From an uncultured Thermoleophilia bacterium (GTDB lineage Bacteria > Actinomycetota > Thermoleophilia > UBA2241): DNA of 64,000 nucleotides. A program made the translations under genes and the position numbers. The stretch is taken from NCBI GenBank assembly GCA_963702475.1, contig CAVPCT010000003.1, positions 480,001 to 544,000 of the forward strand. Direction: 5' to 3'. Numbering within the stretch: the first letter of the stretch is position 1; every line of letters begins with the position of its first letter. Below are positions 17,887 through 40,877 of the stretch, piece after piece. Under the pieces are notes generated by a model, which saw only the letters and a list, made by a program, of their open reading frames with translations, had not been told where the DNA came from and did not search any database.

Positions 17887-19742
17887 ATGTCGACGATGGT
17901 TCGCACGATGCTCGCCGTCCGTTCGCCCACCACGCTGCTCATCGCACTGGTGGTGGCCACGTGCGTCACGGCTTCGCTCACTGGACAGGCAACGGCGTCG
18001 CCGTCCCCCTCGCCCGCAGGGGAGACGCTCACCTTGCGCCTCGGCTGGACCGAGAGCCCGCTCAACCTGAACCCGTTCATCGGCTACAGCAACTCGTACG
18101 AGGTCTGGCTCCTCAATTACGACACCCTCGTGGCGGTCGGCGCCGACGGTGCGCCGTCCAAAGAGACCGGCCTCGCCGAAGACTGGACGCTCTCCGCTGA
18201 TGAGAAGGAGTGGACCTTCACGATCAGAGAGGGCGTCACGTGGCAGGACGGCGAGCCGCTCACGGCGCGCGACGTCGCCTGGACGTTCAACACCATCATC
18301 GAGAACGAGCTGAGCCTCGCGGTCTATCTGAAGGACGTGGAGAAGGCGGTCGCCGTCGACGACACCACGCTCAAGGTGTACTGCAGCGCGCCCAAAGCCA
18401 ACATGCTGCTCACGCAGGTGTACATCTACATCCTGCCCGAGCACCTCTGGGGCGGGCTCAGCGTGGATGAGCTCAGCACCACCTTCCGCAACCCGGTGCC
18501 GATCGTCGGTTCCGGCCCGTTCCGGACGGTCGAGTTCAAGAAGGACGACTACGTCAAGCTGGTCCGCAACCCCTCGTACTGGGGCAGGCAGCCGACCCTG
18601 GACGAGGTCATCTTCCAGTACTACACGAACTCGGACACGATGGTGCAGGACCTCAAGAGCGGCGCCATCGACGGCGCCCAGGTCATCCCGGCCACGCAGT
18701 TCGCGCAGCTGCAGAACGAGCCGGGCATCGAGGCCATCCCGTATCCGCTCTACAACTGGGAGTACGTCGACATCAACTGCTACGACAGCCCCGACTCGCT
18801 CGGCAACCCCGTCCTGACAGACCCCGGGTTCCGCGTGGCCATGGCGTGGGCGATCGACCGCGAGAAGTGCGCAAGCCTGGCCTGGAACGGTCTCGCGGAC
18901 CCGGGTTACGGCATCTTCCCCAAGAAGGGATGGCCGGCGACTGCCGATCCGTACTACCAGCCGGAAGCGGCTGAGACGATCGGCTTCGACCTGGAGAAGG
19001 CGAAGCAGCTGATGGACGAGGCCGGTTACACGGACACCGACGGGGACGGCATCCGCAACGACCCCAGGCACGGCGACGGCGACATCGAGCTGCGACTCTG
19101 GGCGCGCGATATCTCTCCGGAGAGCCAGGTGCAGGGCAAGCTCATAGCCGGCTGGCTCCAGGACATCGGCCTGGACATCGAGTACACGGTGGTCGACGAG
19201 GGCGCGCTGGGCGACAGCATCTGGAACTACAAGGGCGACACGTACGCGCCCGACTACGACCTCGCGCTGTGGGACTTCATGGGTTACATCGACCCCGGCG
19301 ACTCCGCGGCCTGCTTCACCACCGACCAGATCGAGAACTACAACGAGATGAACTGGTCCAACGCGGAGTACGACAGGCTCACCGAGGAGCAGTACCGAGA
19401 GATGGATCCCGCTGCGCGCATGGAACTGCTCAAGCAGGGCCAGGCGGTGATGTACGCGGAGCAGCCCATGATCGTCATCGACTACCCGTCGGTGCTCCAG
19501 GCTGTGAACGTCAGTCGCTGGGAGGGCTGGCAGCCGTACGTGGGCGGCAGCGTGTGGAACAACTTCCTCGATCGGCGGAGCTACATCGAGCTCGAAGCCG
19601 AAGGTCGGCGGAGGCGCCGGCGACGGAAGGCGGCGGCTCCTCCAACGCCGTCTGGTTCATCGTCCTCGTGGGAGTCCTCCTCGGCGTGGCGCTGATCGCC
19701 TGGGTCGTGCTGCGCCGCCGCGGACGCGCTCTCGAAGAATGA
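17887..19742 (+). CDS. Family-5 (Opp/Dpp) ABC substrate-binding protein with C-terminal TM anchor; apparent frameshift near 19593-19605
   Basis: LAEDW...WTFTIREGVTWQDGEPLTARDV, GSGPF, FRVAMAWAIDRE. A C-terminal TM helix plus RRR continues in another frame to stop 19742, overlapping the next start. Confidence 0.88.
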
Positions 19743-20566
19743 CCGCGCCCTCGCCACCGGGCGACTACCACGTGCACACCACGTGGTCGGACGGGACGGG
19801 CAGTGTCGAGGGCTGCGTCGCCCGCGCGGTCGACCTCGGCCTGCCCGAGCTTGGGATCGCCGACCACGTGTCGCCGGCGCCGCGGGCGGCTGAGGAGTGG
19901 TGGGTGCCGCTCGAGCGGCTCGGCGAGTACGTCGCCGACGTGCGCCGGGCCGCGGAGCGGCACGACGACATCGTGGTCCTGGCCGGCCTGGAGGCCGAGT
20001 TCGTCGTGGGACGCGAGGCCGGGCTGGACCTTCTGCTCGACGCGTACGCGTGGGACTACGTGGTGCTCGGCGTACACGAGGTCGACGGGTTCGTGTTCGA
20101 CGACCCCGACCTGCGCCGCGACGCGCGCTGGACGCGGCCCGACGAGCTGCTGGCCGCGTACTACCGTACGATGCGCCGCGCGGCCGAGTACGGTCGCGGC
20201 GACATCCTGGCCCACTTCGACTACATCGGGCTGTGGGGGCATGAGCCCGGGCCGGCCGTCCTGCCCGAAGTCGAGGCCGCGCTCGACGCCCTGGCGGCCT
20301 CGGGCGCGGCCCTCGAGCTGAACACCGACCGCATCAGCGACCCGGCCGGGGTCATGTACCCGTCGCGCGACATCCTCACCATGGCTCGCGAGCGCGGCAT
20401 CCCGCTCGTGATCGACTCGGACGCCCACGAGGCGGAGCACGTCGGCAGGCTCTGGGACGAGGCCATCAAGCACGCCCTGGCGGCCGGGTACCGCTCCACG
20501 CTGCGCATGTCGGACCGCGCACTCGTGCCGCTGCCCGCGTCGCCCCCCGAATGTGACGGCCCGTGA
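19739..20566 (+). CDS. PHP-domain phosphoesterase (HisJ-type histidinol-phosphatase family)
   Basis: DYHVHT, GIADH, GLEAE, LAHFD, ELNT, SDAH. Confidence 0.88.
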   Translation: MTAPSPPGDYHVHTTWSDGTGSVEGCVARAVDLGLPELGIADHVSPAPRAAEEWWVPLERLGEYVADVRRAAERHDDIVVLAGLEAEFVVGREAGLDLLLDAYAWDYVVLGVHEVDGFVFDDPDLRRDARWTRPDELLAAYYRTMRRAAEYGRGDILAHFDYIGLWGHEPGPAVLPEVEAALDALAASGAALELNTDRISDPAGVMYPSRDILTMARERGIPLVIDSDAHEAEHVGRLWDEAIKHALAAGYRSTLRMSDRALVPLPASPPECDGP

Positions 20567-21762
20567 CCGGCGACGCGGGAGTGCCGGCTCTGCGCCGACC
20601 CGTTGCGGCGCGCCTGTCGGAGGCGGTGTACGGCGATCACGCGTCCACGCGCTGGTTCATGCAGCACGTGCGCGAGGTCGTGCCGACGTCGAGGGTGTCG
20701 TCCGGGCGCGGCCCGTTGTGGGAGCTGCCGCGCGCCCCCCGCGAGCTCGACGGCGCGGTCGTGCGAGGGGGCGACGGCCGCTCTTGGACGTTGCGCGAGA
20801 TGCTCGCGGCCACGCACACCGACGCCGTGCTGGTGCTCAGGCGCGGTGAGGTCATCTACGAGCGGTACTTCGGGTCCATGACCGAGGATACGCAGCACCT
20901 CTACCAGTCTGTGTCGAAGTCGGTGGGCGCGTGCGTCGCGGCCCGCCTCATCGAGCGCGGGGTCCTCACCGCCGAGACGCCGCTCACCGCTGTCGTCCCG
21001 GAGCTGGCCGGCAGCGGGTACGACGGGGCCACGGTGCGTGATCTCCTCGACATGCAGGTCGGCGTGCGTTTCAGCGAGGACTACGAGGACGATGGCGCGG
21101 AGATCGCACGCCTCGACCGGCTGTACGGGTTCAGGCCCCGGCGCTCGGACGACGAGCCGGGGTCCTCCTACCGGTTCGCCACCGAGACTGCCCGCGAGGG
21201 CGCGCACGGGCGCGTGTTCCACTACGTTTCTCTCGACCTGCAGGTGCTGGGCTGGGTCATGGAGTGCGCGACCGGCCGGAGCGTGCCGGAGCTGATCGCG
21301 GACGAGGTGTGGTCCGGACTGGGCGCCGAGCACCCCGCGTACGTCGCGCTGGATGCCGCCGGCGCCACCCAGCTCGAGGGCGGGTTCTGCTCGAGCCTGC
21401 GCGACCTCGGCCGTTTCGGGCTGATGCTGTCCCTGGGGGGCGAGGGTCGCGCCGGGCGGGTGCTGCCCGAGGCGTTCATCGCCGACTGCGAGCAGCACGC
21501 CGACCGTGAGGCCTTCAGGCTGTCCGGTCTGGCCGATGGGACCTACGAAGCCGAGCAGGGGTACCGCAGCAACTTCTGGACGGCGGCCTTCGAGGGCCGC
21601 ACCGTGCTGATGGGCCTCGGGATCTTCGGTCAGTTCCTGTACGTCGACCGCACCGCCGGCTTCGTGTTGGCCAAGTTCTCGACCTGGCCGAGCTTCTCGG
21701 ACGACCTGCTCTCCGCGCATCACTTCTGGGCGGCGCGGTCGCTCGCCGGTCTGCTCACCTGA
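20563..21762 (+). CDS. Beta-lactamase-family serine hydrolase (6-aminohexanoate-dimer hydrolase NylB-like)
   Basis: SVSKS, ATVRDLLDM, FHYVS, GIFGQFLYVD. Confidence 0.85.
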   Translation: MTGDAGVPALRRPVAARLSEAVYGDHASTRWFMQHVREVVPTSRVSSGRGPLWELPRAPRELDGAVVRGGDGRSWTLREMLAATHTDAVLVLRRGEVIYERYFGSMTEDTQHLYQSVSKSVGACVAARLIERGVLTAETPLTAVVPELAGSGYDGATVRDLLDMQVGVRFSEDYEDDGAEIARLDRLYGFRPRRSDDEPGSSYRFATETAREGAHGRVFHYVSLDLQVLGWVMECATGRSVPELIADEVWSGLGAEHPAYVALDAAGATQLEGGFCSSLRDLGRFGLMLSLGGEGRAGRVLPEAFIADCEQHADREAFRLSGLADGTYEAEQGYRSNFWTAAFEGRTVLMGLGIFGQFLYVDRTAGFVLAKFSTWPSFSDDLLSAHHFWAARSLAGLLT

Positions 21763-21851: not shown

Positions 21852-23291
21852 ATGGAGATGTGCAGCAACCTGATCGGCGGCGAGTGGGTGGCCGCGTCCG
21901 ACCACGCGACGTTCGAGTCACGGGACCCGGCGCACGCCGACGACGTGCTGGCGGTGTTCCCGAGCGCCACGGCCGCCGATGCGGCCCAGGCCGTGGCCGC
22001 GGCGGCCGAGGCCTTCCCGGCGTGGGCGGCGACGCCGGCGCCGGCGCGGGGCGCGATCCTCTTTCGCGCCGCCGAGCTCCTGACCGAGCGGCTCGACGAT
22101 GTCGCGCGCACGCTCACGCGCGAGGAGGGCAAGACGCTCGCGGAGTCACGCGGCGAAGTGACTCGCGCCCGCGACATCCTGCGGTACTACGGCGGGGAGG
22201 GCTGGCGCGCCGGCGGCGACGTGCTCCCGGCCACTACGCCACACGCCATGCTGTTCAGCCGACGCGAGCCCCTCGGCGTGGTCGCGGTCATCACCCCGTG
22301 GAACTTCCCGATCGCCATCCCCGCCTGGAAGATCGCGCCTGCGCTCGCTTACGGAGACACCGTCGTGTTCAAGCCGGCGTCGGCGACGCCACTCACGGCG
22401 CTGCGGCTCGTGGAGTGCCTCGTGGAGGCAGGGCTGCCCGCCGGTGTGCTCAACCTCATCGCCGGATCCGGGTCCACGGTGGGTGCGGCTGTGGCCGGCG
22501 ACGCGGTCGTGCGAGGCCTGACCTTCACCGGCTCGCACGCCACCGGCGCCGGCCTCTACGCGCGCGCGGCCGAGAACTTCGCCCGCGTCCAGCTCGAGAT
22601 GGGCGGCAAGAACCCGACCGTCGTGCTCGGCGACGCCGACCTCGACCTCGCCGTCCGCCTCGTGACGGCGGGCGGGTTCGGCCTCACAGGGCAGAGTTGC
22701 ACGGCGACCAGTCGCGTGATCGTGGAGGAGAGCGTCGCCGACCGCTTCGCCGCCGCGCTCGCCGAGGCCGCCCGTGAGCTCACCGTCGGCGACGGCCTCG
22801 ACGACGGCGTGCAGATGGGGCCCGCGGTGAGCGAGGAGCAGCTGGCCGTCGACCTGGAGTACGTGCAGATCGCCCGTGACGAGGGCGCGGAACTGCTCGC
22901 CGGCGGCGGGCGCGCGCCCGGCGACGGGCACTTCGTGCAGCCCACGGTGTTCGACCACATGGACGTCCGCAGCCGCCTCGCTCAGGAGGAGGTCTTCGGC
23001 CCCCTGGTCGGCATCGTGCGGGCGCGCGACCTCGACGACGCCATCTTCAAGGCCAACGCTATCGGGTACGGACTGGCCGCAAGCGTCGTCACCAACGACC
23101 TGCACCGCGCCCTCTCGTTCGTCGACCGGATCGAAGCCGGCGTCGTCAAGGTGAACGAGCCGACCACGGGACTGGCCCTGCAGGCGCCTTTCGGCGGCTT
23201 CAAGCAGTCCAGCGCCAACACCTTCAAGGAGCAGGGCCCGGCCGCGGTGGAGTTCTACACGCGGACGAAGACGGTGTATGTGACGTATTGA
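21852..23291 (+). CDS. NAD(P)-dependent aldehyde dehydrogenase (2,5-dioxovalerate dehydrogenase-like)
   Basis: ITPWNFP, FTGS, LEMGGKNP, GQSCTATSR, EEVFGP. Confidence 0.93.
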   Translation: MEMCSNLIGGEWVAASDHATFESRDPAHADDVLAVFPSATAADAAQAVAAAAEAFPAWAATPAPARGAILFRAAELLTERLDDVARTLTREEGKTLAESRGEVTRARDILRYYGGEGWRAGGDVLPATTPHAMLFSRREPLGVVAVITPWNFPIAIPAWKIAPALAYGDTVVFKPASATPLTALRLVECLVEAGLPAGVLNLIAGSGSTVGAAVAGDAVVRGLTFTGSHATGAGLYARAAENFARVQLEMGGKNPTVVLGDADLDLAVRLVTAGGFGLTGQSCTATSRVIVEESVADRFAAALAEAARELTVGDGLDDGVQMGPAVSEEQLAVDLEYVQIARDEGAELLAGGGRAPGDGHFVQPTVFDHMDVRSRLAQEEVFGPLVGIVRARDLDDAIFKANAIGYGLAASVVTNDLHRALSFVDRIEAGVVKVNEPTTGLALQAPFGGFKQSSANTFKEQGPAAVEFYTRTKTVYVTY

Positions 23292-23353
23292 GCGTGTGCT
23301 GCGCCGAGCGTGGGCGTGTCGCACTCCGCTCTCCTGGGGAGTATTGTTTTCTC

Positions 23354-23575
23354 ATGACTCCGGACGTCGAGAGGACCTACACGCTCGTGGTCAGAGGTCC
23401 GGCACAGGACCTGCTGTACGAGCACTTCTCGCGGCTGTTCAACGGTCACGTCGGCGTGACCGTCGTGCGCGACAGGCGCCACGACCAGCGGCGTCGCGGA
23501 GCCGACGCCGTGCCGCGTGATCGGCGCCTGTACGAGCGGCGCCGCGAGCGCCCCTGGCTCGTTCCGCCTGATTGA
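23354..23575 (+). CDS. Small hypothetical protein with repeated [D/E]RR motifs
   Basis: 73 aa; VVRDRRHDQRRRG...DRRLYERRR. TATTGT -10 element 6 nt before the ATG. Confidence 0.6.
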   Translation: MTPDVERTYTLVVRGPAQDLLYEHFSRLFNGHVGVTVVRDRRHDQRRRGADAVPRDRRLYERRRERPWLVPPD

Positions 23576-23795: not shown

Positions 23796-24614
23796 ATGTT
23801 CTTGATGGGTGAGTCGATCAACGGTACGCGCAAGCAGGTCGCCGAGGCGATCCAGTCGCGTGACGCCGCGTTCATCAAGCAGCTCGCCACGGACCAGGTC
23901 GAGGCCGGCGCGTCGGTGCTCGACGTCAACGGCGGCGTCGCCGGCGGCGACGAGATCGCCGACATGACGTGGCTCATCGACACCGTCATGGAAGTCACCG
24001 ACATGCAGCTCATGGTCGACTCGGCGAGCGCCTCTGTGCTCGAGCACGGCGTCAAGCTGATCATCGACAAGGGCGGCAAGGTCCCGTTCATCAACTCCAT
24101 CTCCGGTGAGCAGGCGCGCATCGACGCGGCCATGCCGCTCGTCGAGAAGTACAAGACCCCGGTCCTCGCCCTGTGCCTCAGCGAGGACGGCATCCCGCCG
24201 ACCGCCGCGGACCGTTTCGCCGTCGCCAAGTCGCTGCACGACATGTGCACCGCCGCCGGCCTGCCGGCCGAGGACATCTGGGTCGACCCGCTGGTGCTCA
24301 CCGTGTCGGCCGACAGCCAGGCTGCCGTGGTCACCATGGAGACCCTCAAGATGGTCAAGGAGCAGCTCCCGGTGCGCACCACCGGCGGCCTCAGCAACGT
24401 GAGCTTCGGCCTGCCGAACCGCCCGCTCCTCAACCGCACCATGGTCGCCATGTGCGCCGGCCTCGGCATCGACGGCGCCATCCTCGACGTGCGCAACAAG
24501 GCCATGATGGCCACGATCAAGGCTATCGAGGCGCTGCGCGGCGACGACCAGTTCTGCGGCAACTACCTCATGGCGCACCGCTCCGGCCTGCTTGACGCGC
24601 AGAGCGCCGGCTGA
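23796..24614 (+). CDS. Methyltetrahydrofolate:corrinoid methyltransferase (AcsE-like, pterin-binding barrel)
   Basis: GESINGTRK, LDVN, LMVDS, INSISGE, VDPLV, GLSNVSFGLPNR; SD GGAGG. Confidence 0.88.
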   Translation: MFLMGESINGTRKQVAEAIQSRDAAFIKQLATDQVEAGASVLDVNGGVAGGDEIADMTWLIDTVMEVTDMQLMVDSASASVLEHGVKLIIDKGGKVPFINSISGEQARIDAAMPLVEKYKTPVLALCLSEDGIPPTAADRFAVAKSLHDMCTAAGLPAEDIWVDPLVLTVSADSQAAVVTMETLKMVKEQLPVRTTGGLSNVSFGLPNRPLLNRTMVAMCAGLGIDGAILDVRNKAMMATIKAIEALRGDDQFCGNYLMAHRSGLLDAQSAG

Positions 24615-24621
24615 GAACAGC

Positions 24622-25725
24622 GTGATCGAGCCGGGCCGTTCGCGTGCCCGTGAGTTGGGCATCGCGGTGGGTACCCTGCCCGCCGGCCCTCTGAACGCCA
24701 TCACCGACGTGCCCGGCGTGGCCGTCGGTCACTGTACCGTCTCGTGGGGCGGGCCCGATCTGCCACCTGGCAGCGGGCCCGCCCGCACGGGCGTCACCGC
24801 CGTCCTTCCCCACACCGGCGACGTGTGGCACGAACGTGTCGTCGCCGGCGCCTACGTCGCCAACGGTGTCGGCGAGCTCGTCGGCATCAGCGCTATCCGT
24901 GAGTGGGGCCTCCTCGAGACGCCGGTCCTCCTCACCAACTCGCAGAGCGTAGGAGCCGTGTACGACGCCGCGGTGCGCTGGATGATGGACCGCGATCCGC
25001 GCGTGGGCATCGAAGACGCGGCCATGCCCGTGGTCGGTGAGTGCGACGACGGCTTCCTGAACGACCAGCGCGGCATGCACGTGCACGAAGAGCACGTCCG
25101 CGCCGCGCTTGACTCCGCCGCCGCCGGCCCCGTGGCCGAAGGCTGCATCGGGGCCGGTACCGGCATGTCCTGCTACGACTTCAAAGGCGGCATCGGCACG
25201 TCGTCACGGGCCGTCTCGGCCCACGGCCTTCCCTTCACCGTCGGCGTGCTGGCGCTGACCAACTTCGGCGATCGTGCCCGTCTCACCGTGGACGGCTGCG
25301 CCGTGGGCCGCCTCATCACGGACCTCCTGCCCGTCGAACACCGGGAGGGCTCCTGCATCGTGGTCCTCGCCACCGACGCTCCCCTCACCGCGCGTCAGTG
25401 CGAGCGGCTTGCCAAGCGCTGCTCTCTCGGCCTGGCTGCCACGGGCTCCATAGCATCCGACGGCAGTGGGGAGATCATGCTGGCCTTCAGCACGGCGCAC
25501 CGCGTTCCGCGGACGTCGGCCGAGCCCCTCCGCTTCACCGCCGTGACCAACGACCACCTGTGGGAGCTGTTCGCGGCGGCGGTCGACGCCACGGCCGAGA
25601 GCGTGCTCAACTCGCTCTGCGCGGCGCGCACCACGGTCGGCCGCGGCGGCAACACGGTCCACGAGCTGCCGCTCGACCGCCTCACCGGCGCCCTGCGCGC
25701 CGCCGGTCGCACGCTGACGGTCTGA
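24622..25725 (+). CDS. DmpA/P1-family (S58) aminopeptidase
   Basis: GPLNAITDVPGVAVGH, RTGVTAV, VGECDDG, KGGIGTSSR, GSCIVVLATDAPL. Confidence 0.92.
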   Translation: MIEPGRSRARELGIAVGTLPAGPLNAITDVPGVAVGHCTVSWGGPDLPPGSGPARTGVTAVLPHTGDVWHERVVAGAYVANGVGELVGISAIREWGLLETPVLLTNSQSVGAVYDAAVRWMMDRDPRVGIEDAAMPVVGECDDGFLNDQRGMHVHEEHVRAALDSAAAGPVAEGCIGAGTGMSCYDFKGGIGTSSRAVSAHGLPFTVGVLALTNFGDRARLTVDGCAVGRLITDLLPVEHREGSCIVVLATDAPLTARQCERLAKRCSLGLAATGSIASDGSGEIMLAFSTAHRVPRTSAEPLRFTAVTNDHLWELFAAAVDATAESVLNSLCAARTTVGRGGNTVHELPLDRLTGALRAAGRTLTV

Positions 25726-25950
25726 ACGGCCCCGTCCGGCGCGGGTGTCGGCGGCGCGGGCGGGCCACTCTGTCGGGAGTGCACCTGCGGGTTGGTCTCC
25801 CGCGTCGTGCGGTCCCGCTTGCCCGGCCGCGCCCCGGAAGACTATTCTGGCGGCGGCCCACGTCAGCAGGCCTGGTCGTGGTACGGCGTGCGTGAGAGGG
25901 AGGTGAGGGTTCGCCGCTCGGGGCTTCGAGCGCGGCGATCCCGGCTCGCA

Positions 25951-26919
25951 GTGGACAAACGGCGCTACTTCGTTCGCAAGATCATCAACGCCGTCCTCAC
26001 CATCGTGCTCGTGGCGTCGTTCAACTTCGCGCTCTTCCGCATCCTCCCGGGCGACCCGGCCCGCCTCCTGCTGCCCAAAGGTAAACAGGACCCCTCGGCC
26101 ATCGAGAAGCAGCGCAAGACCTTCAACCTGGACAAGCCCATGTGGCAGCAGTTCGCTCTCTACTGGGGCGACACGCTGCAGGGCAGGTTCGGCATGTCGT
26201 TCTCGGAGAAACGGCCGGTCTCCGAGGTCGTGCTGGAGCGCATCTGGCCAACGGTGCTGCTGGTCGGCGTCGGCACCCTCTTCGCCACGGTCATAGGCAT
26301 GATCACGGGCGTGTTCGCGGGGTGGCGACGAAACGGGGTCTATGACGTTGTATCGACGAACACAGGCATGGTGCTGTACGCCATGCCGACGTTCTGGTTC
26401 GGCCTGCTCATGATCATGCTGTTCGCGACCAGGCTGCGATGGTTCCCGACCGGCCGCATGGAAGAGCCGGGGGTCGTGCTGAGCGGCTGGGCCGCGTTCC
26501 AGTCGCTCGCCAGACACCTGTTCCTGCCCGCGTTCACCTTCGCCATCGCGTATGTGGGCGAGTACCACCTCATCATGCGCAGTTCCATCACCGGCGTGAT
26601 GAAGGAGGACTTCGCCCTCACCGCGCGGGCCAAGGGCCTCAGTGAGAACGCGGTGCTGTGGCGCCACGTGGTGCCGAACGCCATGCTGCCCACGGTCACC
26701 ATCGTGATGATGAACCTGGGCTTCATCATGTCCGGCGCCATCCTGGCCGAGAGCGTCTTCAACTGGCCCGGGCTGGGCCTGCTCTCCTACGAGGCCATGC
26801 AGAACCGCGACTATCCGGTGATGCAGGCCGTGTTCCTCATCGCGAGTATCGCCGTGATCATCGCCAACCTCATCGCCGACATCATGTACTACTACCTCGA
26901 CCCGCGGGTGCGCGCGTGA
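25951..26919 (+). CDS. Peptide ABC transporter permease (DppB/OppB-like)
   Basis: LPGDP, PTFWFG, TARAKGLSE, FNWPGLG, LDPRVR. The start could also be GTG 25903. Confidence 0.93.
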   Translation: MDKRRYFVRKIINAVLTIVLVASFNFALFRILPGDPARLLLPKGKQDPSAIEKQRKTFNLDKPMWQQFALYWGDTLQGRFGMSFSEKRPVSEVVLERIWPTVLLVGVGTLFATVIGMITGVFAGWRRNGVYDVVSTNTGMVLYAMPTFWFGLLMIMLFATRLRWFPTGRMEEPGVVLSGWAAFQSLARHLFLPAFTFAIAYVGEYHLIMRSSITGVMKEDFALTARAKGLSENAVLWRHVVPNAMLPTVTIVMMNLGFIMSGAILAESVFNWPGLGLLSYEAMQNRDYPVMQAVFLIASIAVIIANLIADIMYYYLDPRVRA

Positions 26920-29503: not shown

Positions 29504-30552
29504 TGGCGGCCACGGCGCACAAGGGCTCCGTGGGCAGCGGCGACCTCGCCTCCGCCACGGCGCAGGACGGGGTGCTGTTCGACGTCACCGACCTGGAGGT
29601 CTACTTCCAGGTCCAGCAGGGCTTCTTCAAGGCCATGGTCGCCAAGGAGAAGAAGTACGTGAAGGCCGTGGACCACATCAGCTTCCAGGTGCTGCAGGGC
29701 GAGATCCTGGCGCTGGTCGGCGAGTCGGGCTGCGGCAAGACCACCACCGGCCGCGCCCTCCTGAGGCTCGAGGAGCCCACCGGCGGCCACATCCTCTACA
29801 AGGGGCTGCCGGTCGAGAGATTCTCCACGAAGACCCTGCGCGAGTACCGCAAGAAGGCGCAGATCATCTTCCAGGACCCCTACAACTCCATCAATCCCAA
29901 GCAGACCATCTTCGACATCGTGGCCGAGCCGCTCGAGGTCAACGGGCTCACGTCGAGCGAACGCGAGAAGGAGGAGCGCGTCGTCAAGGCCATCAGCGAG
30001 GCTGGGCTACGGCCGGCGACCGACTACCTCTACCGCTACCCGCATGAGCTCTCGGGCGGACAGCGGCAGCGCGTCTGCATCGCCGGCGCCACGGTGCTCG
30101 ACCCGGACGTCATCGTCGCAGACGAGCCCGTGGCCAGTCTCGACGTCTCCATCCGCAACGACATCCTCAAGCTCATGGTCGAGCAGAAGGAGAAGCTCGG
30201 CGTCACGTACATCTTCATCACCCACGATCTCTCCCTGGCGTGGGTGATCAGCAACCGCATCGCCGTGATGTACCTGGGGCGCATCGTCGAGATCGGCGAG
30301 ACCGAGGAGGTCGTCGCCAATCCCAGGCACCCGTACACGCGCGCCCTCATCAGCGTCATCCCGGTGCCGGACCCCCTGGCCAGGCGCGAGCACGTCATCC
30401 TCACCGGCGAGACGCCCAACCCCATCGATATCCCCTCGGGCTGTCGCTTCCACCCGCGCTGTCCCGAGGCGATCGACGCGTGTCGCGAGACCGATCCGGC
30501 GGCCGTGCACATCGGCGGGGATCACTACGCCTCCTGCTTGAGGATCTCCTGA
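29503..30552 (+). CDS. Peptide ABC transporter ATPase (DppF-like)
   Basis: [33 protein letters not shown]. Confidence 0.95.
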
Positions 30553-30575
30553 CCGCGCGGTCCGCGGTCCCCGCC

Positions 30576-32051: not shown

Positions 32052-32114
32052 GCCTGTAGAGTGACCGCGGCGGGTCTTGGGACTCCCGCCGCGACGACGA
32101 CGGGGGGTACGCCC

Positions 32115-33200
32115 ATGCCGGTCTCGTTTCCCTGCATCCAGGCACGGGGCTCGTACAGGGAGCTGGGGAGAGCCGTGGGAGAGGGTGCACGCGAGCAGAT
32201 CGCCGCGGCCATGGAGTTCTACGAGACGCACTTCCGCGTGATGAGCGGCCTGGAGTTCGCCGAGGCCGAGCGACAGGCGCAACAGTACGCGCCGTTCGTG
32301 CGCCGGTACCTGCCGCAGTACCTCGAGGAGCTTGAAGGCATGGCCGAGGGCTCGGGGCAGCCTCTGGGCAAGCTTCTGGTGCCGAACTGCGCTGAGGAGT
32401 TCACCTGTCCCGTCGACGATGGTCCTGCCGCGCAGGAGGATCCCCCCGGTGCAGGTCACTTCTGCACGGCGGTCGCCGCCATGACCGGCGCGCGGCACCT
32501 GGTCGGCCACAACATGGACTGGTATGTCGTCGACGTCGACAAGAACGTCCTGTTCGACCTGACCACGCCCGACGGCACGAGGATCGTCACTATCGCCGGC
32601 GTGCCCTACCTGCCGATCCTGGGAATGAACTCGCACGGCATCGCCTACGTGGGCAACTCCGTGTACTGCAACGACGGACGCCCGGGCGTGCCCAACGTGT
32701 TCGTGCGCCGCTGGGCCCTCGAGGCCCGCAGCCTCGAGGAGGCGGCGGCGCGCGCCGCGATGCCCGTACGGGCGCGCGGCTCCAACCACCTGATCGCCGA
32801 CCGCGCGGGCCGCATCTGGGACCTGGAGACGTCGGCGCACGGCGCGGTGCTCACGGAGCACGAGGGGTTCGCGGCGCACACCAACCACTACGTGGCGCCG
32901 GCCATGAGCGTGTACGAGGGCAGCCACAGCCTGGAGTCCCGCGCGCGATTGGCGTTCGCCGAGGCCGCGCTGGCCGGCGGCCTCGCGGCCGGCGAGGATC
33001 CCCGCGCTCTCGTCGACGCCGTGCTGCGCAGCCACCACGGCGCTCCCGACTGTGTCTGCGGCCACCCTGACGACGCGCAGCCGCCCGGCGAGCAGGTGAT
33101 GACCGTGGCCAGCATGGTCTGCGACCTCGACGCCATGGAGCTGCACGCCTGCGCCGGCCCGCCGTGCGAGAACCCGTACACCGTCTGGCCGGTCGCCTGA
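32115..33200 (+). CDS. Peptidase C45-family Ntn hydrolase/acyltransferase
   Basis: EELEGMAEG, autoprocessing site F|CTAV, GHNMDW, GMNSHGI, HTNHY. Confidence 0.88.
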   Translation: MPVSFPCIQARGSYRELGRAVGEGAREQIAAAMEFYETHFRVMSGLEFAEAERQAQQYAPFVRRYLPQYLEELEGMAEGSGQPLGKLLVPNCAEEFTCPVDDGPAAQEDPPGAGHFCTAVAAMTGARHLVGHNMDWYVVDVDKNVLFDLTTPDGTRIVTIAGVPYLPILGMNSHGIAYVGNSVYCNDGRPGVPNVFVRRWALEARSLEEAAARAAMPVRARGSNHLIADRAGRIWDLETSAHGAVLTEHEGFAAHTNHYVAPAMSVYEGSHSLESRARLAFAEAALAGGLAAGEDPRALVDAVLRSHHGAPDCVCGHPDDAQPPGEQVMTVASMVCDLDAMELHACAGPPCENPYTVWPVA

Positions 33201-33219
33201 CGTCGCCCGAGGTCCACTA

Positions 33220-34869
33220 GTGCCCACACTCGACCTCGTCATCGCCGACGCCCGTGTCGTGGACGGCTGCGGCAACCCCTGGTTCCGCGCGGACGTCGGC
33301 GTGCGCGGCGACCGCATCGCCGTCATGGCTCCCCCCGGGACGCTGGCCGCGGCGACGTGCGTGCAGGCCGGCGGGCGGTACCTGACGCCGGGCTTCATCG
33401 ATCCGCACACGCACTCGGACCTCACCGTCCTGCTGCACCCCCGGGCCGAGACGGCCGTGCGTCAGGGGGTGACGACACACGTCACCGGCAACTGCGGCAT
33501 GTCGGCGGCGCCGCTCACCGAGAAGCACCGCGACGACGCGGTGCACAACTGGGCGCACTACGCGTGGGGCCTCGAGCGGGTGGCCTGGGACTGGCGCACC
33601 TTCGGGCAGTACCTGAAGGCGCTTCGCCGCATCGGACACGCCGTCAACATCGCCCCGCTCGTCGGACACGGGGCGCTGCGGCTGGCCGTGGTCGGCTTCG
33701 CCGCACGGCCGGTCACCGCGCGCGAGCTGCGACGCATGGAACACCTGCTGGATGAGTCCATGCGGGCCGGCGCACACGGCCTGTCCAGCGGCCTGGTCTA
33801 CCCTCCCGGCTGCTACGCCTCCACCGACGAGCTCGTCGCCCTCTGCCGGGTCGTGGCGCGCTACCACGGCATCTACACGAGCCACGTGCGCGGCGAGCGG
33901 GAGACGATCCTGGACGCCGTGGCGGAGGCCGTCCTCATCGGGCGCGAGGCGGGCGTACCGGTGGAGGTGTCGCACAACGCCCCCAAATGGGGCGCGCCGG
34001 AGGACGCGAGCGCCAACCTGGCGCTCATGGAAGCAGCCCGCGATCAAGGCCAGGACGTCACGACCGACAACGACACGCACCCCGAGCTCGCGCCGCCGCT
34101 CTCGCGGGCTTTGCCGCAGCCCGTGCTCGACCTCGGTCGCGACGAGCTGCTGCGCCTGCTGCGCGACCCGGAGCGGCGCGAGCAGCTGCGGCGCGACGTG
34201 GCCGCCGACGCACTGCCGGGCGCGGGGTACACAGGGCTGCTGCGCCACGGCCGCTTCGACCGCATCGTCGTGCTGCACGCCGCGCGGCAGCCGGAGCTGC
34301 GCGGCCGCTCCGTGTCGGCGATCGCCGCCGAGCGCGGTCGCGACCCGTTCGACACGTTCCTCGACCTCGTGGTGGACAACGACGACGAGGTCGTCGGTAT
34401 TTTCGACTACATCGCCGAGGACGATATCCGCGCCCTGCTGAGGAGCCCGCTGGCCATGGTCTCCTCGGACGGGCTGGTCATGCCGCCGGCCGAGGACCTC
34501 GACGACCCGGCGCTGTACTGGCCCTGCAGCTACGGCGAGTACGCCGGGGTCCTGGCCCGCTTCGTGCGCGACGAGGGTGTGCTGCGCCTCGAGGAGGCCG
34601 TGCGCAAGATGACCTCCTTCCCGGCACAGCGCTTCGGCCTGCACGACCGCGGCGTGCTGCGCCCTGGTCTCAAGGCCGACCTCGTGCTGTTCGACCTTGG
34701 CCGTGTCCGGGACAGGGCCACCAACCCCGCTCCGCACACGTTCCCCTTCGAGAACGTCCCGCACCGGTACGCCGAGGGTTTCGACTGGGTGGTGGTCAAC
34801 GGCGTCCCGGTGGTGGCTGACGGCGAGCACACGGGCGCGCTGCCCGGCCGTGTGCTCAAGCACGCCTGA
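33220..34869 (+). CDS. N-acyl-D-amino-acid deacylase (amidohydrolase 3 family)
   Basis: PGFIDPHTHSD, QGVTT..TGNCG, GLSSGLVYPPG, SHVRGE, EEAVRKMTSFPA. Confidence 0.92.
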   Translation: MPTLDLVIADARVVDGCGNPWFRADVGVRGDRIAVMAPPGTLAAATCVQAGGRYLTPGFIDPHTHSDLTVLLHPRAETAVRQGVTTHVTGNCGMSAAPLTEKHRDDAVHNWAHYAWGLERVAWDWRTFGQYLKALRRIGHAVNIAPLVGHGALRLAVVGFAARPVTARELRRMEHLLDESMRAGAHGLSSGLVYPPGCYASTDELVALCRVVARYHGIYTSHVRGERETILDAVAEAVLIGREAGVPVEVSHNAPKWGAPEDASANLALMEAARDQGQDVTTDNDTHPELAPPLSRALPQPVLDLGRDELLRLLRDPERREQLRRDVAADALPGAGYTGLLRHGRFDRIVVLHAARQPELRGRSVSAIAAERGRDPFDTFLDLVVDNDDEVVGIFDYIAEDDIRALLRSPLAMVSSDGLVMPPAEDLDDPALYWPCSYGEYAGVLARFVRDEGVLRLEEAVRKMTSFPAQRFGLHDRGVLRPGLKADLVLFDLGRVRDRATNPAPHTFPFENVPHRYAEGFDWVVVNGVPVVADGEHTGALPGRVLKHA

Positions 34870-35066: not shown

Positions 35067-36728
35067 ATGATCACCGTTCAGGACATCCTCGAGATCCCCG
35101 ACCTCGACCTGCGCCTGCTCGCAGGGGCCAAGTCCACCAGCAATCCCGTGCGCTGGGTCCACATCACCGAGGTGCCCGACCCCACCCGTTGGCTCAAGGG
35201 CGGGGAGCTGCTGCTCACCACCGGCTACGGCTTCGCCACCGAGGAGCAGCACCAGATCGACCTGCTCAAGGTGCTCATCGACCACAACATCTCCGGCCTC
35301 GGCTTCGGCACCGGCTTCAGTTTCGACAAGGTGCCGCCGGCCCTGGTGCGCGTGGCCGAGGAGTACGGCTTCCCGCTGTTCGAGGTGCCGTATCACGTGC
35401 CGTTCATCGCCATCACCGAGGCCGTGGCCTCCAAGATCGTCAATGAGCAGTACTCGCTGCTGCAGCGCAGCTTGGCCGTGCACGAGAAGCTCACCAAGAT
35501 CGTGCTGGAGGAGAAAGGCCTCGAGGCGATACTCTCCACGCTCTCGGCCCTCGTCGGCTGCTCAGCCGTCCTCTTCGACTTCCACGGCGTGGTGCTCTGT
35601 GAGGCCGCGTACCGCCGCCGCCTCAGCGCCGAGCTGGTCGCCGACCTGTGGGGCCGCATCAGCGACCGCCGCGCCGATCGCCAGAACTTCGCCCTCTCCA
35701 TCGCCGGTGTCGCTTCAGGCGTGCAGGTGTACCCTGTGGTCGCGTCGCACCGCATCGGTGCGTTCCTCGCGGTGGTCAAGGACAGCGGCGACTTCAGCGA
35801 GTACGACCGCATCATCCTTCACAACGTGGTCACCGTCACGGCCCTCGAGCTGGTGAAGAAGAAGGCCGTCGCCGAGACAGAGAAGCGCCTCGCCGGCGAT
35901 TTCTTCGACGAGCTCATCGCCAGCGACCTCTACGAAGAGGAGATCGCCCGCCGCCTCGCCTTCTTCGGGCTGGACCCGCGGGCGCCGCACCTCATCATGC
36001 TGCTCGACATCGACGACGCCGACGGCGACGCCGCGGCCGAGCGCAGCGAGGCGGCCGTGCAGGATGTCAAGGAGCGCCTGCACTGGGCCGTGGACGAGTT
36101 CATGGCGCGGCGCGACGTGCTGTTCATCTCCGCGTCCCGCGCCGATTCTGTGGTCATCCTCGTGCAGCCGGCCAGGCCGGACGGCGGCGACGTCATCAGC
36201 CTGGCCGGCGAGCTGCAGAGCGGCATCGCCCAGCTCCTTCCGGAGGTCAGCGTGTCACTGGGCATCGGGCGGCCGCACCGCCAGCTCATCGACCTGCGCC
36301 AGAGCTACTACGAGGCCAGCTACGCGATCAAGATCCGTACGCTCAAAGGCGAGCGTCGTGTCATCGCAAGCTTCGACGATCTGGGCTCGTACGGCCTGCT
36401 GCTCGGTCTGCAGGACACGCTCTCGCTGCAGGTGTTCTACGACAGCGTGCTCGGCAGGCTGCAGGAGTACGACGAGCAGAACTCCAGCGACCTGGTCAAG
36501 AGTCTCGCCTGTTTTCTCGAGGCCAACGGCCACTGGGGCGACGCCGCCGAGAAGCTCTACGTGCATCGCCACACGCTGCGCTACCGCATGAAGCGCGTGG
36601 AGGAGATCACCGGGCGCGACCTCGACCAGTCGCAGGACCGCATGGAGTTCTGGCTGGCCCTCAAGGCCAAGGAGCTCATGGACCAGTCCAAGAAGGGCAA
36701 GCACGGCGGGGAGCCCGTCAGGTCCTGA
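35067..36728 (+). CDS. PucR-family transcriptional regulator
   Basis: VRWVHITEVPDPTRWLKGGELLLTTG; C-terminal HTH LYVHRHTLRYRM. Confidence 0.94.
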   Translation: MITVQDILEIPDLDLRLLAGAKSTSNPVRWVHITEVPDPTRWLKGGELLLTTGYGFATEEQHQIDLLKVLIDHNISGLGFGTGFSFDKVPPALVRVAEEYGFPLFEVPYHVPFIAITEAVASKIVNEQYSLLQRSLAVHEKLTKIVLEEKGLEAILSTLSALVGCSAVLFDFHGVVLCEAAYRRRLSAELVADLWGRISDRRADRQNFALSIAGVASGVQVYPVVASHRIGAFLAVVKDSGDFSEYDRIILHNVVTVTALELVKKKAVAETEKRLAGDFFDELIASDLYEEEIARRLAFFGLDPRAPHLIMLLDIDDADGDAAAERSEAAVQDVKERLHWAVDEFMARRDVLFISASRADSVVILVQPARPDGGDVISLAGELQSGIAQLLPEVSVSLGIGRPHRQLIDLRQSYYEASYAIKIRTLKGERRVIASFDDLGSYGLLLGLQDTLSLQVFYDSVLGRLQEYDEQNSSDLVKSLACFLEANGHWGDAAEKLYVHRHTLRYRMKRVEEITGRDLDQSQDRMEFWLALKAKELMDQSKKGKHGGEPVRS

Positions 36729-36794: not shown

Positions 36795-37553
36795 TCAAGA
36801 CAGTACCAGCGCTCCGTGGTCGACGACGACGTTCGTGCCCGTGACCGCCTCCGTCTCCAGACAGAACCGCACCGCGGCGCCGATGTCGGCCGGGTCGACC
36901 AGCCGGCCGCCCGACAGCTTGAGCGCGGCGCGTTGCGAGGCTTCCCGGTGCTCGTCGTCGGGCAGGTCCACCGGTCCCGGCGCGACGCCGCAGACGCGTA
37001 CGTGGTCGGGGGCCCAGGCGGAGGCCAAGGTCTTGACGAGGTGGATCTGGGCCGCCTTGGCGGCGCCGTGGGCGGCGAAGTTGGGCCACGGCATGATGCC
37101 CATCGAGTCCGTGATCGCCACGATCACGCCCGACTGACGTGCGGGATCCCTTCTGCGGACGAGCTCGTCGTGCGCCGCTCCCGCCGCGAAGAAGAACCCT
37201 CTGGCGATGGTGTCGAGCGAGGCGTCCCACTCGTCTCCGGAGACCCTCTCGGGACGCTGCGGCCTGAACGCGCCGCTGGCCGCGTACACCACGGCGTCGA
37301 GGCCGCCGAGCGCCGCGGCTCCGTCGGCCACGAGCGCGCGCGCGCCCTCAGGCTCGCGCACGTCGCCGGTGGCCAGGACGGCGCCGCCGGCCCCGGCGGC
37401 CAGAAGCTCCGCCAGCCGCTCACCGGCCGGCGGCCCGGCGCTCCGTGAAGTGATGCACAGGCCGGCGCCGCGCTTCGCGAGATCGCCGGCGATCGCCCGA
37501 CCCAGGCGGTGCACGCCGCCGATGACCAGCACTCGTGCCCCCGCGATGTCCAT
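36795..37553 (-). CDS. Short-chain dehydrogenase/reductase (pteridine-reductase-like)
   Basis: GGVHRLGRAIA, HGAAKAA (His in place of catalytic Tyr), VAPGPV, VTGTNVVVDHG; SD GGGAGG. Confidence 0.85.
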   Translation of the reverse strand: MDIAGARVLVIGGVHRLGRAIAGDLAKRGAGLCITSRSAGPPAGERLAELLAAGAGGAVLATGDVREPEGARALVADGAAALGGLDAVVYAASGAFRPQRPERVSGDEWDASLDTIARGFFFAAGAAHDELVRRRDPARQSGVIVAITDSMGIMPWPNFAAHGAAKAAQIHLVKTLASAWAPDHVRVCGVAPGPVDLPDDEHREASQRAALKLSGGRLVDPADIGAAVRFCLETEAVTGTNVVVDHGALVLS

Positions 37554-37790
37554 GTCGTCCTCCCGCGCCGTGGCTCTCCACTCGCGTCCACGGCCACCAT
37601 TGTAGTGCCCGCCCGTGAACGCTGCGCGCTGTCCCGGCTTCCCGTGTGACTTCAGTGGGCGAATTCTTTGCATTGTGGGCTTTTCTGTTCGTTCCGATGT
37701 GCTAGAGTGCACAATCGTGCACGACCATGTGCAACCGCGCACGCGCGAGTCGCGAGCGAAACTGAGCGAGCAGAGGAGCGAGGAGGAGCC

Positions 37791-38912
<1,122 letters not shown>

Positions 38913-38923
38913 GCACCCTTTCG

Positions 38924-39053
38924 GCTCCGGTGCGGCCAGTGGCCGCACCGGAGCGGACGTGCCAGAATGGAGCCGCGTTCGGACGACCGTCCGAACGCGG
39001 CTCCATCTGCGTCCGGGCGACGATGTGACCCCGGCCGGCGCTGCCGGCTGGGG
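38924..39053. other. Three tandem strong hairpins in the ald-aor spacer
   Basis: 15-bp inverted repeat 38924-38954, 18-bp stem 38967-39006, third stem 39029-39053. Confidence 0.7.
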
Positions 39054-39101
39054 AGGGGGCGGAGGGGCCTCAGGCGAGCGCGCACGGCAAAGGAGCGACC
39101 A

Positions 39102-40877
39102 TTGGGCGACCTTCTCCGCATCGACCTCACCGCTGGGACCTGCAGCGAAGAGACCATCCCGCCACAGCTCATCAGGGAGCTCATCGGCGCCAAGGGCGTC
39201 GGCACGCACTACCTGTGTGAGGAGGTCGGGCCGGACGTCGACCCGCTGAGCCCGCAGAACAAGCTCGTCTTCTGCGTCGGACCCATGGGCGGCACGTCCA
39301 TGTACGGAAGCAACCGCTACGCCGTGTACTTCGCCTCGCCGCTCACGGGCGGCTACGGGGAGTGCTACTCCGGCGGCAATCTCACTCCACAGTTCGCGAA
39401 GACCGGCTACAAGGTCGTGATCGTGGAGGGCAGGGCCGACTGCCCCACCTACCTCGAGGTCAGCGAGCAGGGCGCGCAGTTCCACGACGCCTCGGACGTG
39501 TGGGGCATGGACGCGTTCGCCGCGGAGGACGCTCTGCTCGCACGCACCGACAACAAGAAGGCCCAGGCCTGCGTCATCGGACAGGCCGGCGAGCGTCTGG
39601 TGCGCTTCGCCTGCGTCAACAACAACTACTGGCATCAACTCGGCCGCGGCGGCCCCGGCGCGGTGTTCGGCAGCAAGAACCTCAAGGGCATCGTGTGGCA
39701 CGGCGACCAGAAGGTGGAGGTCGCCCGTCCGGACGACTACAAGGCCGTGGTCCGAGACCTCGTGGAGCGCTGCAAAGACGATCCAGGGGTTGCCGCCTAC
39801 CAGCGCGGCGGCACGCTCAACATGCTGCGCATCATGAACACGCAGAACGCATTCCCGACCAGGTACTGGCGCGCGGGCTCCATGGAGACGTTCGAACGCA
39901 TCACGGTCGAGACCATGCTCGAGGAGCACGGCACGGTCAATCAGACCTGCCCGCCGTGCGTGTTCAAGTGCGTCAAGCGCAACACCGTCTTCAAGGGCCG
40001 CCACGAGGGGCTCGTGGTGGAGGGTCCTGAGTACGAGACCGCCTACGTGTTCGGCGGTCTCTGCTGCATCGACGACTTCGCCGAGATCATGTGGCTCAAC
40101 GACCTCTGCGACCGGTACGGCGTCGACAGCATGGACGCGGGCAACCTCTGCGCCCTCGCCATCGAGTGCAGCCAGCGCGGCATCATCGAGGACCAGCTCG
40201 GCTGGAACGATCCCGAGGGGGTAGGCGCCTTCCTCACGAAGCTGTGCCTGCGCGAGGGCATCGGCGACCTCTGGGCCGAAGGCCTCCTTGCCGTGGAGAA
40301 GGAGTACGGCCTGGAGGGCCTTGCCGTGCACTGCAAGGGCATGGCGCCGGCGGGCTACGAACCGCGTCGCATGAAGGGCATGGGTCTGGGCTTCGCCACC
40401 ACCACGCGCGGCGCCTGCCACCTGCGCGCCACGATGTACAAGCCGGAGATCACCGGGGTCATCGATCCTCAGGAGATCGTGGGCAAGGCGGCCATCTACT
40501 GCGACTGGGAGGACCGCCTCACCATCATGGACACGCTCGTCTACTGCCGCTTCTACCGCGACATGGTGCAGTGGCCGTACATCACCGCCGTCGTCAACGC
40601 AGCGGTCGGCACCGACTACACGCCGGACGACCTGCACAAGATCGCCAACCGCATCATCACGATGACCCGCGACTTCAACCTGGCGCGAGGCATCGGTCGC
40701 GAGACCGAGCGGCTGCCCGAGTGGGTGTCCGACGCGCCGCGCGAGGACAACGGCTGGACCTTCCCCCAGAGCGAGATGGAGCACATGCTCCGCGAGTACT
40801 ACGAGATCCGCGGCTGGGGCGAATTGCCCGAGGTCGCACCGGTGGCGCACAACGCGCTGCTCGACGAGAAGATCTGA
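39102..40877 (+). CDS. Aldehyde:ferredoxin oxidoreductase (tungsto/molybdopterin AOR family)
   Basis: LRIDLT, SPLTGG, GRGGPGAVFGSKNLK, CPPCVFKC, GPEYET, RGACHL; TTG start after AAAGGAG. Confidence 0.93.
   Translation: MGDLLRIDLTAGTCSEETIPPQLIRELIGAKGVGTHYLCEEVGPDVDPLSPQNKLVFCVGPMGGTSMYGSNRYAVYFASPLTGGYGECYSGGNLTPQFAKTGYKVVIVEGRADCPTYLEVSEQGAQFHDASDVWGMDAFAAEDALLARTDNKKAQACVIGQAGERLVRFACVNNNYWHQLGRGGPGAVFGSKNLKGIVWHGDQKVEVARPDDYKAVVRDLVERCKDDPGVAAYQRGGTLNMLRIMNTQNAFPTRYWRAGSMETFERITVETMLEEHGTVNQTCPPCVFKCVKRNTVFKGRHEGLVVEGPEYETAYVFGGLCCIDDFAEIMWLNDLCDRYGVDSMDAGNLCALAIECSQRGIIEDQLGWNDPEGVGAFLTKLCLREGIGDLWAEGLLAVEKEYGLEGLAVHCKGMAPAGYEPRRMKGMGLGFATTTRGACHLRATMYKPEITGVIDPQEIVGKAAIYCDWEDRLTIMDTLVYCRFYRDMVQWPYITAVVNAAVGTDYTPDDLHKIANRIITMTRDFNLARGIGRETERLPEWVSDAPREDNGWTFPQSEMEHMLREYYEIRGWGELPEVAPVAHNALLDEKI

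Follow-up and report, generated by a model that had tools for sequence, protein, structure and literature searches.

MttB superfamily members of characterised function demethylate either trimethylamine, by way of pyrrolysine, or an acidic quaternary amine, which is bound through a conserved arginine. Among the closest described systems, those of Eubacterium limosum are reported to use one corrinoid protein and one MtqA, from separate clusters, to serve three MttB enzymes (PMC8604678). For choline in the same organism, MthK is reported to alter the substrate ahead of the MttB member, a role in which no earlier enzyme is said to be known, and the need for phosphorylation is explained by the requirement for an acidic substrate (PMC12155760). 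The glycine betaine enzyme MtgB of Desulfitobacterium hafniense contacts its substrate through Y97, R312, H348 and F356, and R312, which forms a salt bridge to the substrate's acid group, is reported as conserved in all MttB members of known function, whose substrates are all acidic (PMC13080624). Here we describe a gene cluster in a 64,000-nucleotide stretch of DNA (hereafter the window; contig CAVPCT010000003.1 of assembly GCA_963702475.1) from an uncultured Thermoleophilia bacterium, in which a non-pyrrolysine MttB gene lies among genes for a Dpp-type importer and three amide hydrolases, behind a gene for a methylcorrinoid:tetrahydrofolate (THF) methyltransferase (MeTr).

As with MtpB, MtcB and MtyB of E. 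limosum, the substrate-specific enzyme is a non-pyrrolysine MttB member; as with MtqC, the genes imply a shared corrinoid protein encoded apart from the MttB gene; and as with MtqA, which is described as handing methyl groups to THF for acetogenesis, a Pterin_bind enzyme is the predicted second methyltransferase (PMC8604678). Unlike those systems, whose free acidic betaines are reported to be bound via the conserved arginine (PMC13080624), the MttB of the window has an aspartate, and its gene sits among an ABC importer and three amide hydrolases. The E. limosum choline system (MthK, MthB, MthC and MthA) offers a parallel for a neighbouring enzyme that readies the substrate for MttB, a role for which the hydrolases are candidates; in the published description, however, phosphorylation yields an acidic substrate and the corrinoid protein belongs to the cluster, whereas here hydrolysis is the candidate step, the predicted donor is non-acidic and the cluster holds no corrinoid gene (PMC12155760). 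The MtgB-MtgC-MtgA system of D. hafniense provides the best solved match of the window's MttB (MtgB, 173 bits) and a match to MeTr (4o0q, 156 bits), but the four betaine-contacting residues are changed to G, D, S and G, and no corrinoid gene adjoins. Identity to MtgB, the one solved bacterial member and the one compared, is low, and the E. limosum enzymes are set apart by their description. Import and hydrolysis are combined in Escherichia coli, whose ddpXABCDF operon co-transcribes a Dpp-type ABC importer with an enzyme that acts on D-aminoacyl peptides. Beside the Dpp importer of the window, the genes for the DmpA-like and D-aminoacylase-like enzymes fit this logic; unlike in ddpXABCDF, MttB and MeTr lie within the same gene string, and we know of no corrinoid-dependent methyltransferases in dipeptide import-plus-hydrolase operons of this kind.

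We propose that the operon serves to take up and split a small amide-linked compound, from which an N-methyl group would travel by way of MttB, a shared corrinoid protein and MeTr to methyl-THF, a reading to which we give roughly even odds. Its more specific form, in which the Asp-type MttB demethylates non-acidic N-methyl compounds that enter as amide-linked conjugates and are released by amidases devoted to them, is tentative and somewhat doubtful. What is distinctive is the combination of three amide hydrolases, an Asp-type MttB and a place behind the lineage's only MtgA-like gene. MttB methylotrophy that would be coupled to import and hydrolysis is a plausible and new variant: a full-text literature search, with supplements outside its reach, found no report linking MttB with these hydrolases and no paper on MttB in Thermoleophilia beyond metagenome surveys. 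Actinobacteriota, which may or may not belong to the same lineage, are reported in one survey to express pyrrolysine-type mttB and mtbB in a peat mire (PMC10805028).

If true, the more specific reading would give the first hydrolysis-coupled MttB pathway, and in sediments and soils the reach of anaerobic methylotrophy would grow beyond free betaines to include bound methyl-amines. Carriers appear common in metagenomes from lake sediment, wetland, soil and wastewater, and the host is an anaerobic member of an uncultured Thermoleophilia family with Wood-Ljungdahl genes and pyrrolysine machinery. An Asp-type clade, whose charge is reversed relative to the arginine of the acid-binding enzymes, together with an importer and hydrolases is a testable lead to a new class of methyl donor in anaerobic one-carbon metabolism. 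From the genome context, dozens of substrate-specific methyltransferases in one lineage would depend on just one downstream methyltransferase and on corrinoid proteins held in common.

The predicted operon and its MttB protein

The gene families, their catalytic residues, the spacing of the operon, its conservation and the supply of partners in the genome are direct observations. Pfam, NCBIfam and PDB sequence searches recovered every gene family that an earlier, sequence-only reading of positions 17887-40877 had named, each at its place, and its description of an almost entirely co-oriented string is accurate: 16 of 17 genes lie on the + strand, with the short-chain dehydrogenase (SDR) as sole exception. 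G+C content is ~70% across the window. Judged by spacing and comparison, the natural unit is probably a closely spaced 11-gene operon at 23796-34869 and not the full 23 kb; its order is MeTr, DmpA, DppBCDF, MttB, C45 and D-aminoacylase-like amidohydrolase. Counted from MeTr through to the amidohydrolase, the intervals (negative where genes overlap) measure -23, 225, -4, -4, 41, 23, 9 and 19 bases. That mttB, C45 and the deacylase directly follow the ABC ATPase, as the same reading held, is thus borne out: mttB starts 23 bases past dppF, C45 9 past mttB and the amidohydrolase 19 past C45. The outer gaps are wider, at 504 bases 5' of MeTr and 197 bases 5' of the PucR gene. A consensus scan of the window gave one promoter-like site (0.6 expected) and eight terminator-like sites (4.9 expected), of which only a hairpin 3' of the aldehyde dehydrogenase (ALDH) gene, at 23324-23342, is informative. 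No riboswitch was found in the cluster, an Rfam scan of the window giving only a tRNA at 42512-42585.

All three hydrolases of the operon retain the residues of their solved relatives. The DmpA-like protein (313 bits to 2drh, 251 bits to DmpA, 1b65) has a Gly-Ser pair aligned to G249-S250 of 1b65, so that the self-processing site is kept; the C45 protein has a cysteine aligned to Cys103 of 2x1d, preceded by Phe and not Gly; and in the amidohydrolase the HxH motif, the cysteine, two histidines and the aspartate of 1m7j are all aligned and conserved. We take these to be the processing, nucleophile, metal or catalytic residues of the respective enzymes.

Two permeases, two oligo_HPY-tailed ATPases and a family-5 solute-binding protein (SBP) together constitute a Dpp/Opp importer. 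The SBP of the window, whose N-terminus is lipoprotein-signal-like, is the first gene of a variable upstream block and differs from the binding protein that precedes mttB in most relatives (SBP'); it is 33-40% identical to SBP', versus 47-52% to a third SBP type. The window has no SBP' between DppF and MttB, where relatives usually have one; the orthologue in its genome (59-61% identity) is on the same contig at a distance of 430 kb (C3:68739-70316). A ligand class could not be read from SBP', whose nearest solved matches are generic (AppA, 105 bits; AgaA, 99 bits).

The MttB protein matches PF06253 over nearly its full length (profile 29-499 of 500; 246 bits, cut-off 25). Its frame, 30576-32051, contains no in-frame stop and hence not the UAG-encoded pyrrolysine of a trimethylamine methyltransferase; Cys318 aligns with X334, the pyrrolysine of 7xcl, and with the TAG codon of 14 paralogs in the same genome, and the pyrrolysine-type model TIGR02369 scores 271 bits, below its cut-off of 525. 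When aligned by HMMER to its best solved match, the glycine betaine enzyme MtgB (9yce/2qne), the protein has Gly98, Asp313, Ser348 and Gly356 for Y97, R312, H348 and F356, the alignment to 9yce being less certain around residue 98. None of the acid-binding arginine, the cation-pi aromatics (Y97, F356) and H348 is kept; pyrrolysine-type paralogs likewise have Gly at the F356 position. The equivalent of Asp313 is present in 44 of 44 clade rows aligned and invariant in a further clade alignment, as is the surrounding motif, an Asp between two Cys, across the clade.

A quick maximum-likelihood IQ-TREE run placed a long, fully supported branch between the other 50 paralogs of the genome and the clade of the window's MttB, among whose 12 rows are a 52% sister group and the C9:72801 paralog. 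The pyrrolysine clade and three Arg-keeping paralogs of the same genome fall on the side opposite to this clade. Identity across the family is 63-91%. On these comparisons the protein belongs to a separate, deep non-pyrrolysine clade grouping with no characterised enzyme. A wider, profile-free search of 1.84 billion representatives gave 692 relatives at E <=1e-30. Asp (12) or Asn (2) occupies the 313 position in all 14 full-length sequences among the top 28 of 150 listed relatives, even at 31% identity. Asp-type MttB proteins thus make up a broad uncharacterised branch, and the substrates involved may form a large class that is likewise uncharacterised.

Because an invariant aspartate replaces the acid-binding arginine, a non-acidic methyl donor is predicted, most simply one with a neutral or cationic tail (amine, amide or amino-alcohol). 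The methylated amino-acid conjugates put forward by the sequence-only reading are a guess, one of several possibilities. No common substrate hint emerged from the contexts of the 52-54% sister clade, which vary: an SBP with an ornithine-cyclodeaminase-family gene; a major facilitator superfamily (MFS) transporter with pirin; and an SBP with an M24 peptidase and an amine oxidase.

One-carbon partners and proposed mechanism

The genome (G000) is a 4.3-Mb assembly, 94% complete with 6.5% contamination, and carries the window on a >1.1 Mb contig. Its operon MeTr has a Pterin-binding TIM barrel scoring above the cut-off of the methylcorrinoid:THF methyltransferase model and matches the MeTr 2yci (167 bits), 4o0q of D. 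hafniense (156 bits), which we take to be MtgA, and AcsE (151 bits). Pterin_bind genes number three: folP, in the window; an AcsE copy beside ACS at C5:452332, distinct from the operon gene; and the operon MeTr. Most genus relatives share this pattern, and MeTr is a backbone gene of the lineage and probably a second methyltransferase common to many systems. The folP gene lies with folK (HPPK) at 48557-50662 (+), ~25 kb 3' of MeTr, a linkage of ~8-31 kb in genus relatives.

MttB genes are abundant, with 75 family-model matches and 58 paralogs found by tblastn (more than half of the query covered). Contig C4 holds 34 of the 58 (2-235 kb). Fourteen paralogs have a single in-frame TAG exactly at the pyrrolysine position, and PylS (C3:657647-658372) and PylD (C3:640193-640975) are present; from these genes, the Thermoleophilia lineage appears to read UAG as pyrrolysine.

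The partners of the proposed route into methyl-THF metabolism are all encoded in the genome: 43 B12-binding matches (41 above cut-off) include corrinoid proteins, RACo/RamA-like activator genes (RACo_C_ter) occur at three places, and the Wood-Ljungdahl genes comprise ACS, AcsE, MTHFR and formyl-THF synthetase (FTHFS). The corrinoid protein and reductive activase of an MttB three-component system are thus available genome-wide, with none in the window. Within 10 kb of 125 related loci, the only corrinoid sequence found was a 35-residue fragment at the edge of L040, and 40 of the 58 MttB paralogs lack a corrinoid gene within 8 kb. As no full corrinoid gene lies near the related loci, a shared corrinoid protein encoded elsewhere is implied. 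One candidate is a B12-binding protein (gene at C5:570673) ~3 kb 3' of MTHFR, within C5:566624-571011.

In the proposed mechanism, the Dpp-type ABC importer and a family-5 binding protein would take in a small amide- or peptide-like compound, which up to three cytoplasmic amide hydrolases (DmpA-type, C45 Cys-Ntn and D-aminoacylase-like) would open. MttB would then take an N-methyl group, either off the imported compound itself or off a fragment released from it, and load it onto a Co(I) corrinoid protein, encoded elsewhere, probably common to many MttB paralogs and kept reduced by RamA-like activators. The MtgA/MtqA-like product of the operon's first gene would move the methyl group to THF and so into the Wood-Ljungdahl pathway. 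We infer that the hydrolases and MttB share a single substrate, as well as what that substrate is like and in which order the steps follow.

Conservation, modularity and competing explanations

Related loci (125; L labels loci and G labels genomes) came from scans of genome and metagenome collections. Because the genomes are related and the collections share entries (L020 and L079 are one contig), the counts are not independent. The usual order is (PHP)-(ALDH)-MeTr-DmpA-DppBCDF-[SBP']-MttB-C45-Amido3-PucR-SDR(-)-Ald-AOR, where Amido3 is the D-aminoacylase-like amidohydrolase, Ald alanine dehydrogenase and AOR aldehyde:ferredoxin oxidoreductase. Where MttB identity is 60% or more, the most constant neighbour of mttB is C45, which comes directly after it in 87 of 96 evaluable cases; the preceding gene is SBP_bac_5 (47) or DppF (25) in 72 of 79. 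Recurrence of the same gene order in related genomes and metagenome contigs argues that the arrangement is not due to chance. An MttB orthologue occurs in 60 of the 89 family genomes covered, and MttB-C45 adjacency extends to seven of its genera. A 201-genome sample of the class showed the MttB clade in 24 of the 35 members of the window's family that it contained and in none of 165 genomes from other families.

Three Chloroflexi/Limnocylindrales records (L034, L035 and L037) carry MttB orthologues 65-69% identical to that of the window, without corrinoid, MeTr or hydrolase genes. These sequences nest within the Thermoleophilia clade, which suggests horizontal transfer out of it. An MFS transporter lies upstream in L034 and L035, and the neighbours are unrelated in L037, L077, L098, L101, L103 and L104. 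The MFS carrier was discarded as a pointer to ligand class, as it gave weak drug-efflux-like matches only.

Several observations weigh against the hydrolysis-coupled reading. A family-5 binding protein or DppB/C-like permease lies within 8 kb of 24 of the 58 MttB paralogs, so the substrate is not necessarily a peptide just because a Dpp importer is present; the sequence-only reading knew of no characterised MttB linked to such an importer and to amidases, and of these two the importer is not special to the locus. Family genomes that hold two MttB genes, or none, still keep MeTr-type genes, and MeTr is therefore not specific to the window's MttB. All cluster-bearing genomes belong to one family, so that the conserved order partly reflects common descent, and orthologues 65-74% identical outside the family have no cassette genes nearby. 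Within the family, modules come apart. G164 (100% complete) has SBP-DppBCDF-C45-PucR without MttB, DmpA or Amido3; G213 has MeTr-DppBCDF-C45-PucR; G159 has SBP'-C45-Amido3 with MttB missing; G007 (100% complete) has GroEL-MeTr-PucR-SDR-Ald and no cassette; L024 has ALDH-MeTr-SBP'-MttB-PucR without DmpA, Dpp, C45 or Amido3; and Amido3 is missing in L020/L079 and L121.

Much of this would also be expected if two unrelated functions were merely adjacent, the Dpp importer and hydrolases salvaging peptides of the D-aminoacyl, beta-aminoacyl or N-acyl kind, such as debris of cell walls, while MttB and MeTr demethylate a free small methylamine that enters via its own SBP' or, in other phyla, an MFS carrier. 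The transcript would then be shared only because the spot beside MeTr collects catabolic genes. We consider this explanation possible but less likely than the coupled one. It accommodates Dpp-C45 without MttB (G164 and G213), SBP'-C45-Amido3 without MttB (G159), MttB-SBP' without hydrolases (L024), the lack of hydrolases beside orthologues outside the family, the variation of the GroEL-to-PucR stretch between relatives, and the unmethylated substrates of the closest solved relatives of the hydrolases. It sits less easily with the position of mttB inside the operon, 23 bases past dppF and 9 before C45, and with the adjacency of C45 and MttB in nearly all evaluable loci. The C45 and Amido3 genes are, moreover, single-copy and have no other place in the genome. 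At L045:8200-14250, SBP', MttB, C45 and Amido3 are each broken into 3-5 frame-shifted pieces between single-frame flanking genes, a pattern that fits joint decay of one functional unit or a local assembly error; the locus comes from a metagenome assembly, so the frame shifts could be sequencing errors.

Extending the pathway to the whole of 17887-40877, as the sequence-only reading did, would have the SBP, PHP, NylB-like and ALDH genes act early, PucR regulate, and Ald and AOR oxidise the skeleton. Near-uniform orientation, the place of ALDH just 5' of MeTr in L005, L010, L011, L024, L031, L045, L046, L096, L114 and L115, and the position of PucR after the cassette in most loci speak for this version, but comparison with relatives makes it improbable. 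Co-conservation holds for the MeTr-DmpA-DppBCDF-MttB-C45-amidohydrolase block, which recurs, and fails for the SBP-PHP-NylB-ALDH block, whose presence is inconsistent; the modules are separable. Within the relatives' stretches compared, the NylB-like gene is present only in the closest relative, L046, and the PHP gene adjoins MeTr or ALDH in some relatives only. On the other flank, PucR, Ald and MeTr are kept in loci without the cassette, as in G007, where PucR-SDR-Ald persists; among the variant loci (G164, G213, G159 and G007) SDR is in all, and AOR is absent from three of the four. Retention of PucR-SDR-Ald-(AOR) and MeTr in cassette-free relatives counts against one 23-kb scavenging pathway, and the comparative data do not back oxidation of the skeleton by ALDH and AOR, both flanks being variable or cassette-independent. 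The 504-base ALDH-MeTr gap includes the terminator-like hairpin, and the genome holds 11 AOR and 12 ALDH paralogs. The PucR protein weakly matches the models for PmfR and AdeR. Its target could be ald or the cassette, or it could control both; the resemblance to AdeR may point to ald.

More improbable still is that the window's MttB is no amine demethylase and uses another kind of methyl donor or has a different role. In its favour, Asp stands for Arg, Gly for both aromatics and all four MtgB betaine-contacting residues differ, and the literature search found no characterised clade member. Against it stand the near-complete match to the MTTB model, the identity retained across the family, the methylcorrinoid:THF methyltransferase heading the same operon and the Gly that pyrrolysine-type paralogs also have at the F356 position.

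Features of the locus and its surroundings

Table 1 Genes of the MttB locus, with window positions and supporting matches.
Feature	Position	Strand	Evidence
SBP_bac_5, family-5 solute-binding protein	17887-19695	+	PF00496, 280 bits
PHP-domain phosphoesterase, HisJ (histidinol-phosphatase) family	19739-20566	+	PF02811; TIGR01856, 115 bits (cut-off 90.2)
NylB-like beta-lactamase-fold serine hydrolase	20563-21762	+	PF00144; 187 bits to 6-aminohexanoate-dimer hydrolase 1wyc
NAD(P)-dependent ALDH	21852-23291 (open reading frame (ORF) from 21801)	+	PF00171, 544 bits
Small ORF, 73 aa, C-terminal half Arg-rich	23354-23575	+	tblastn-conserved, no Pfam family
Methylcorrinoid:THF methyltransferase, MeTr/MtgA/MtqA type (Pterin_bind)	23796-24614	+	NF005719, 290.8 bits (cut-off 259)
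DmpA/BapA-type self-processing aminopeptidase, Peptidase_S58	24592-25725	+	PF03576, 381 bits
DppB-type ABC permease	25951-26919 (ORF from 25792)	+	PF00528, PF19300; Opp2B/Opp4B-like
DppC-type ABC permease	26916-28466 (ORF 26658-28466, start uncertain)	+	PF00528, PF12911 OppC_N
DppD/OppD-type ATPase	28463-29503	+	PF00005, PF08352
DppF/OppF-type ATPase	29545-30552 (ORF from 29383)	+	PF00005, PF08352
MttB-superfamily methyltransferase, non-pyrrolysine	30576-32051	+	PF06253, 246 bits
C45-family Ntn (Cys-nucleophile) acyltransferase/hydrolase	32061-33200	+	NF040521, 198 bits (cut-off 85)
D-aminoacylase-like metal amidohydrolase (Amidohydro_3, Amido3)	33220-34869	+	PF07969; 263 bits to 1m7j
PucR-family regulator	35067-36728	+	PF07905, PF17853, PF13556
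SDR	~36795-37550	-	adh_short, adh_short_C2
Alanine dehydrogenase (Ald)	37791-38912 (ORF from 37668)	+	TIGR00518, 465 bits (cut-off 392)
AOR, tungsten-type family	38967-40877	+	PF02730, PF01314

The nearest models to the ALDH are 2,5-dioxovalerate and ketoglutarate-semialdehyde dehydrogenases, both below cut-off (NF052305, 602 bits against 750). The 73-aa ORF has tblastn matches in 32 of 125 loci, every time shortly 5' of MeTr; a Pfam search gave no match and the Atlas returned unnamed Actinomycetota clusters only. Its product could be a small nucleic-acid-binding regulator of MeTr. Elsewhere in the genome, a NylB-like paralog (50% identical) adjoins a pyrrolysine-type MttB at C6:108122-110813 and a PHP paralog (34%) adjoins another MttB paralog at C1:222461-225631; a pairing of hydrolase and MttB genes may thus recur.

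Further along the window, FtsH spans two overlapping ORFs at 46047-48306 (+), the first carrying the AAA domain and the first 35 positions of Peptidase_M41 and the second M41 positions 37-190, a split that reflects either a frameshift or an assembly error. A 174-aa ORF at 9557-10081 (+), next to an amino-acid permease gene at 10323-12014, holds no more of a thiamine-diphosphate enzyme than its N-terminal TPP-binding domain and is possibly a truncated gene. A Mrr-type restriction endonuclease gene lies at 59705-60622 (+), near MMPL transporter genes.

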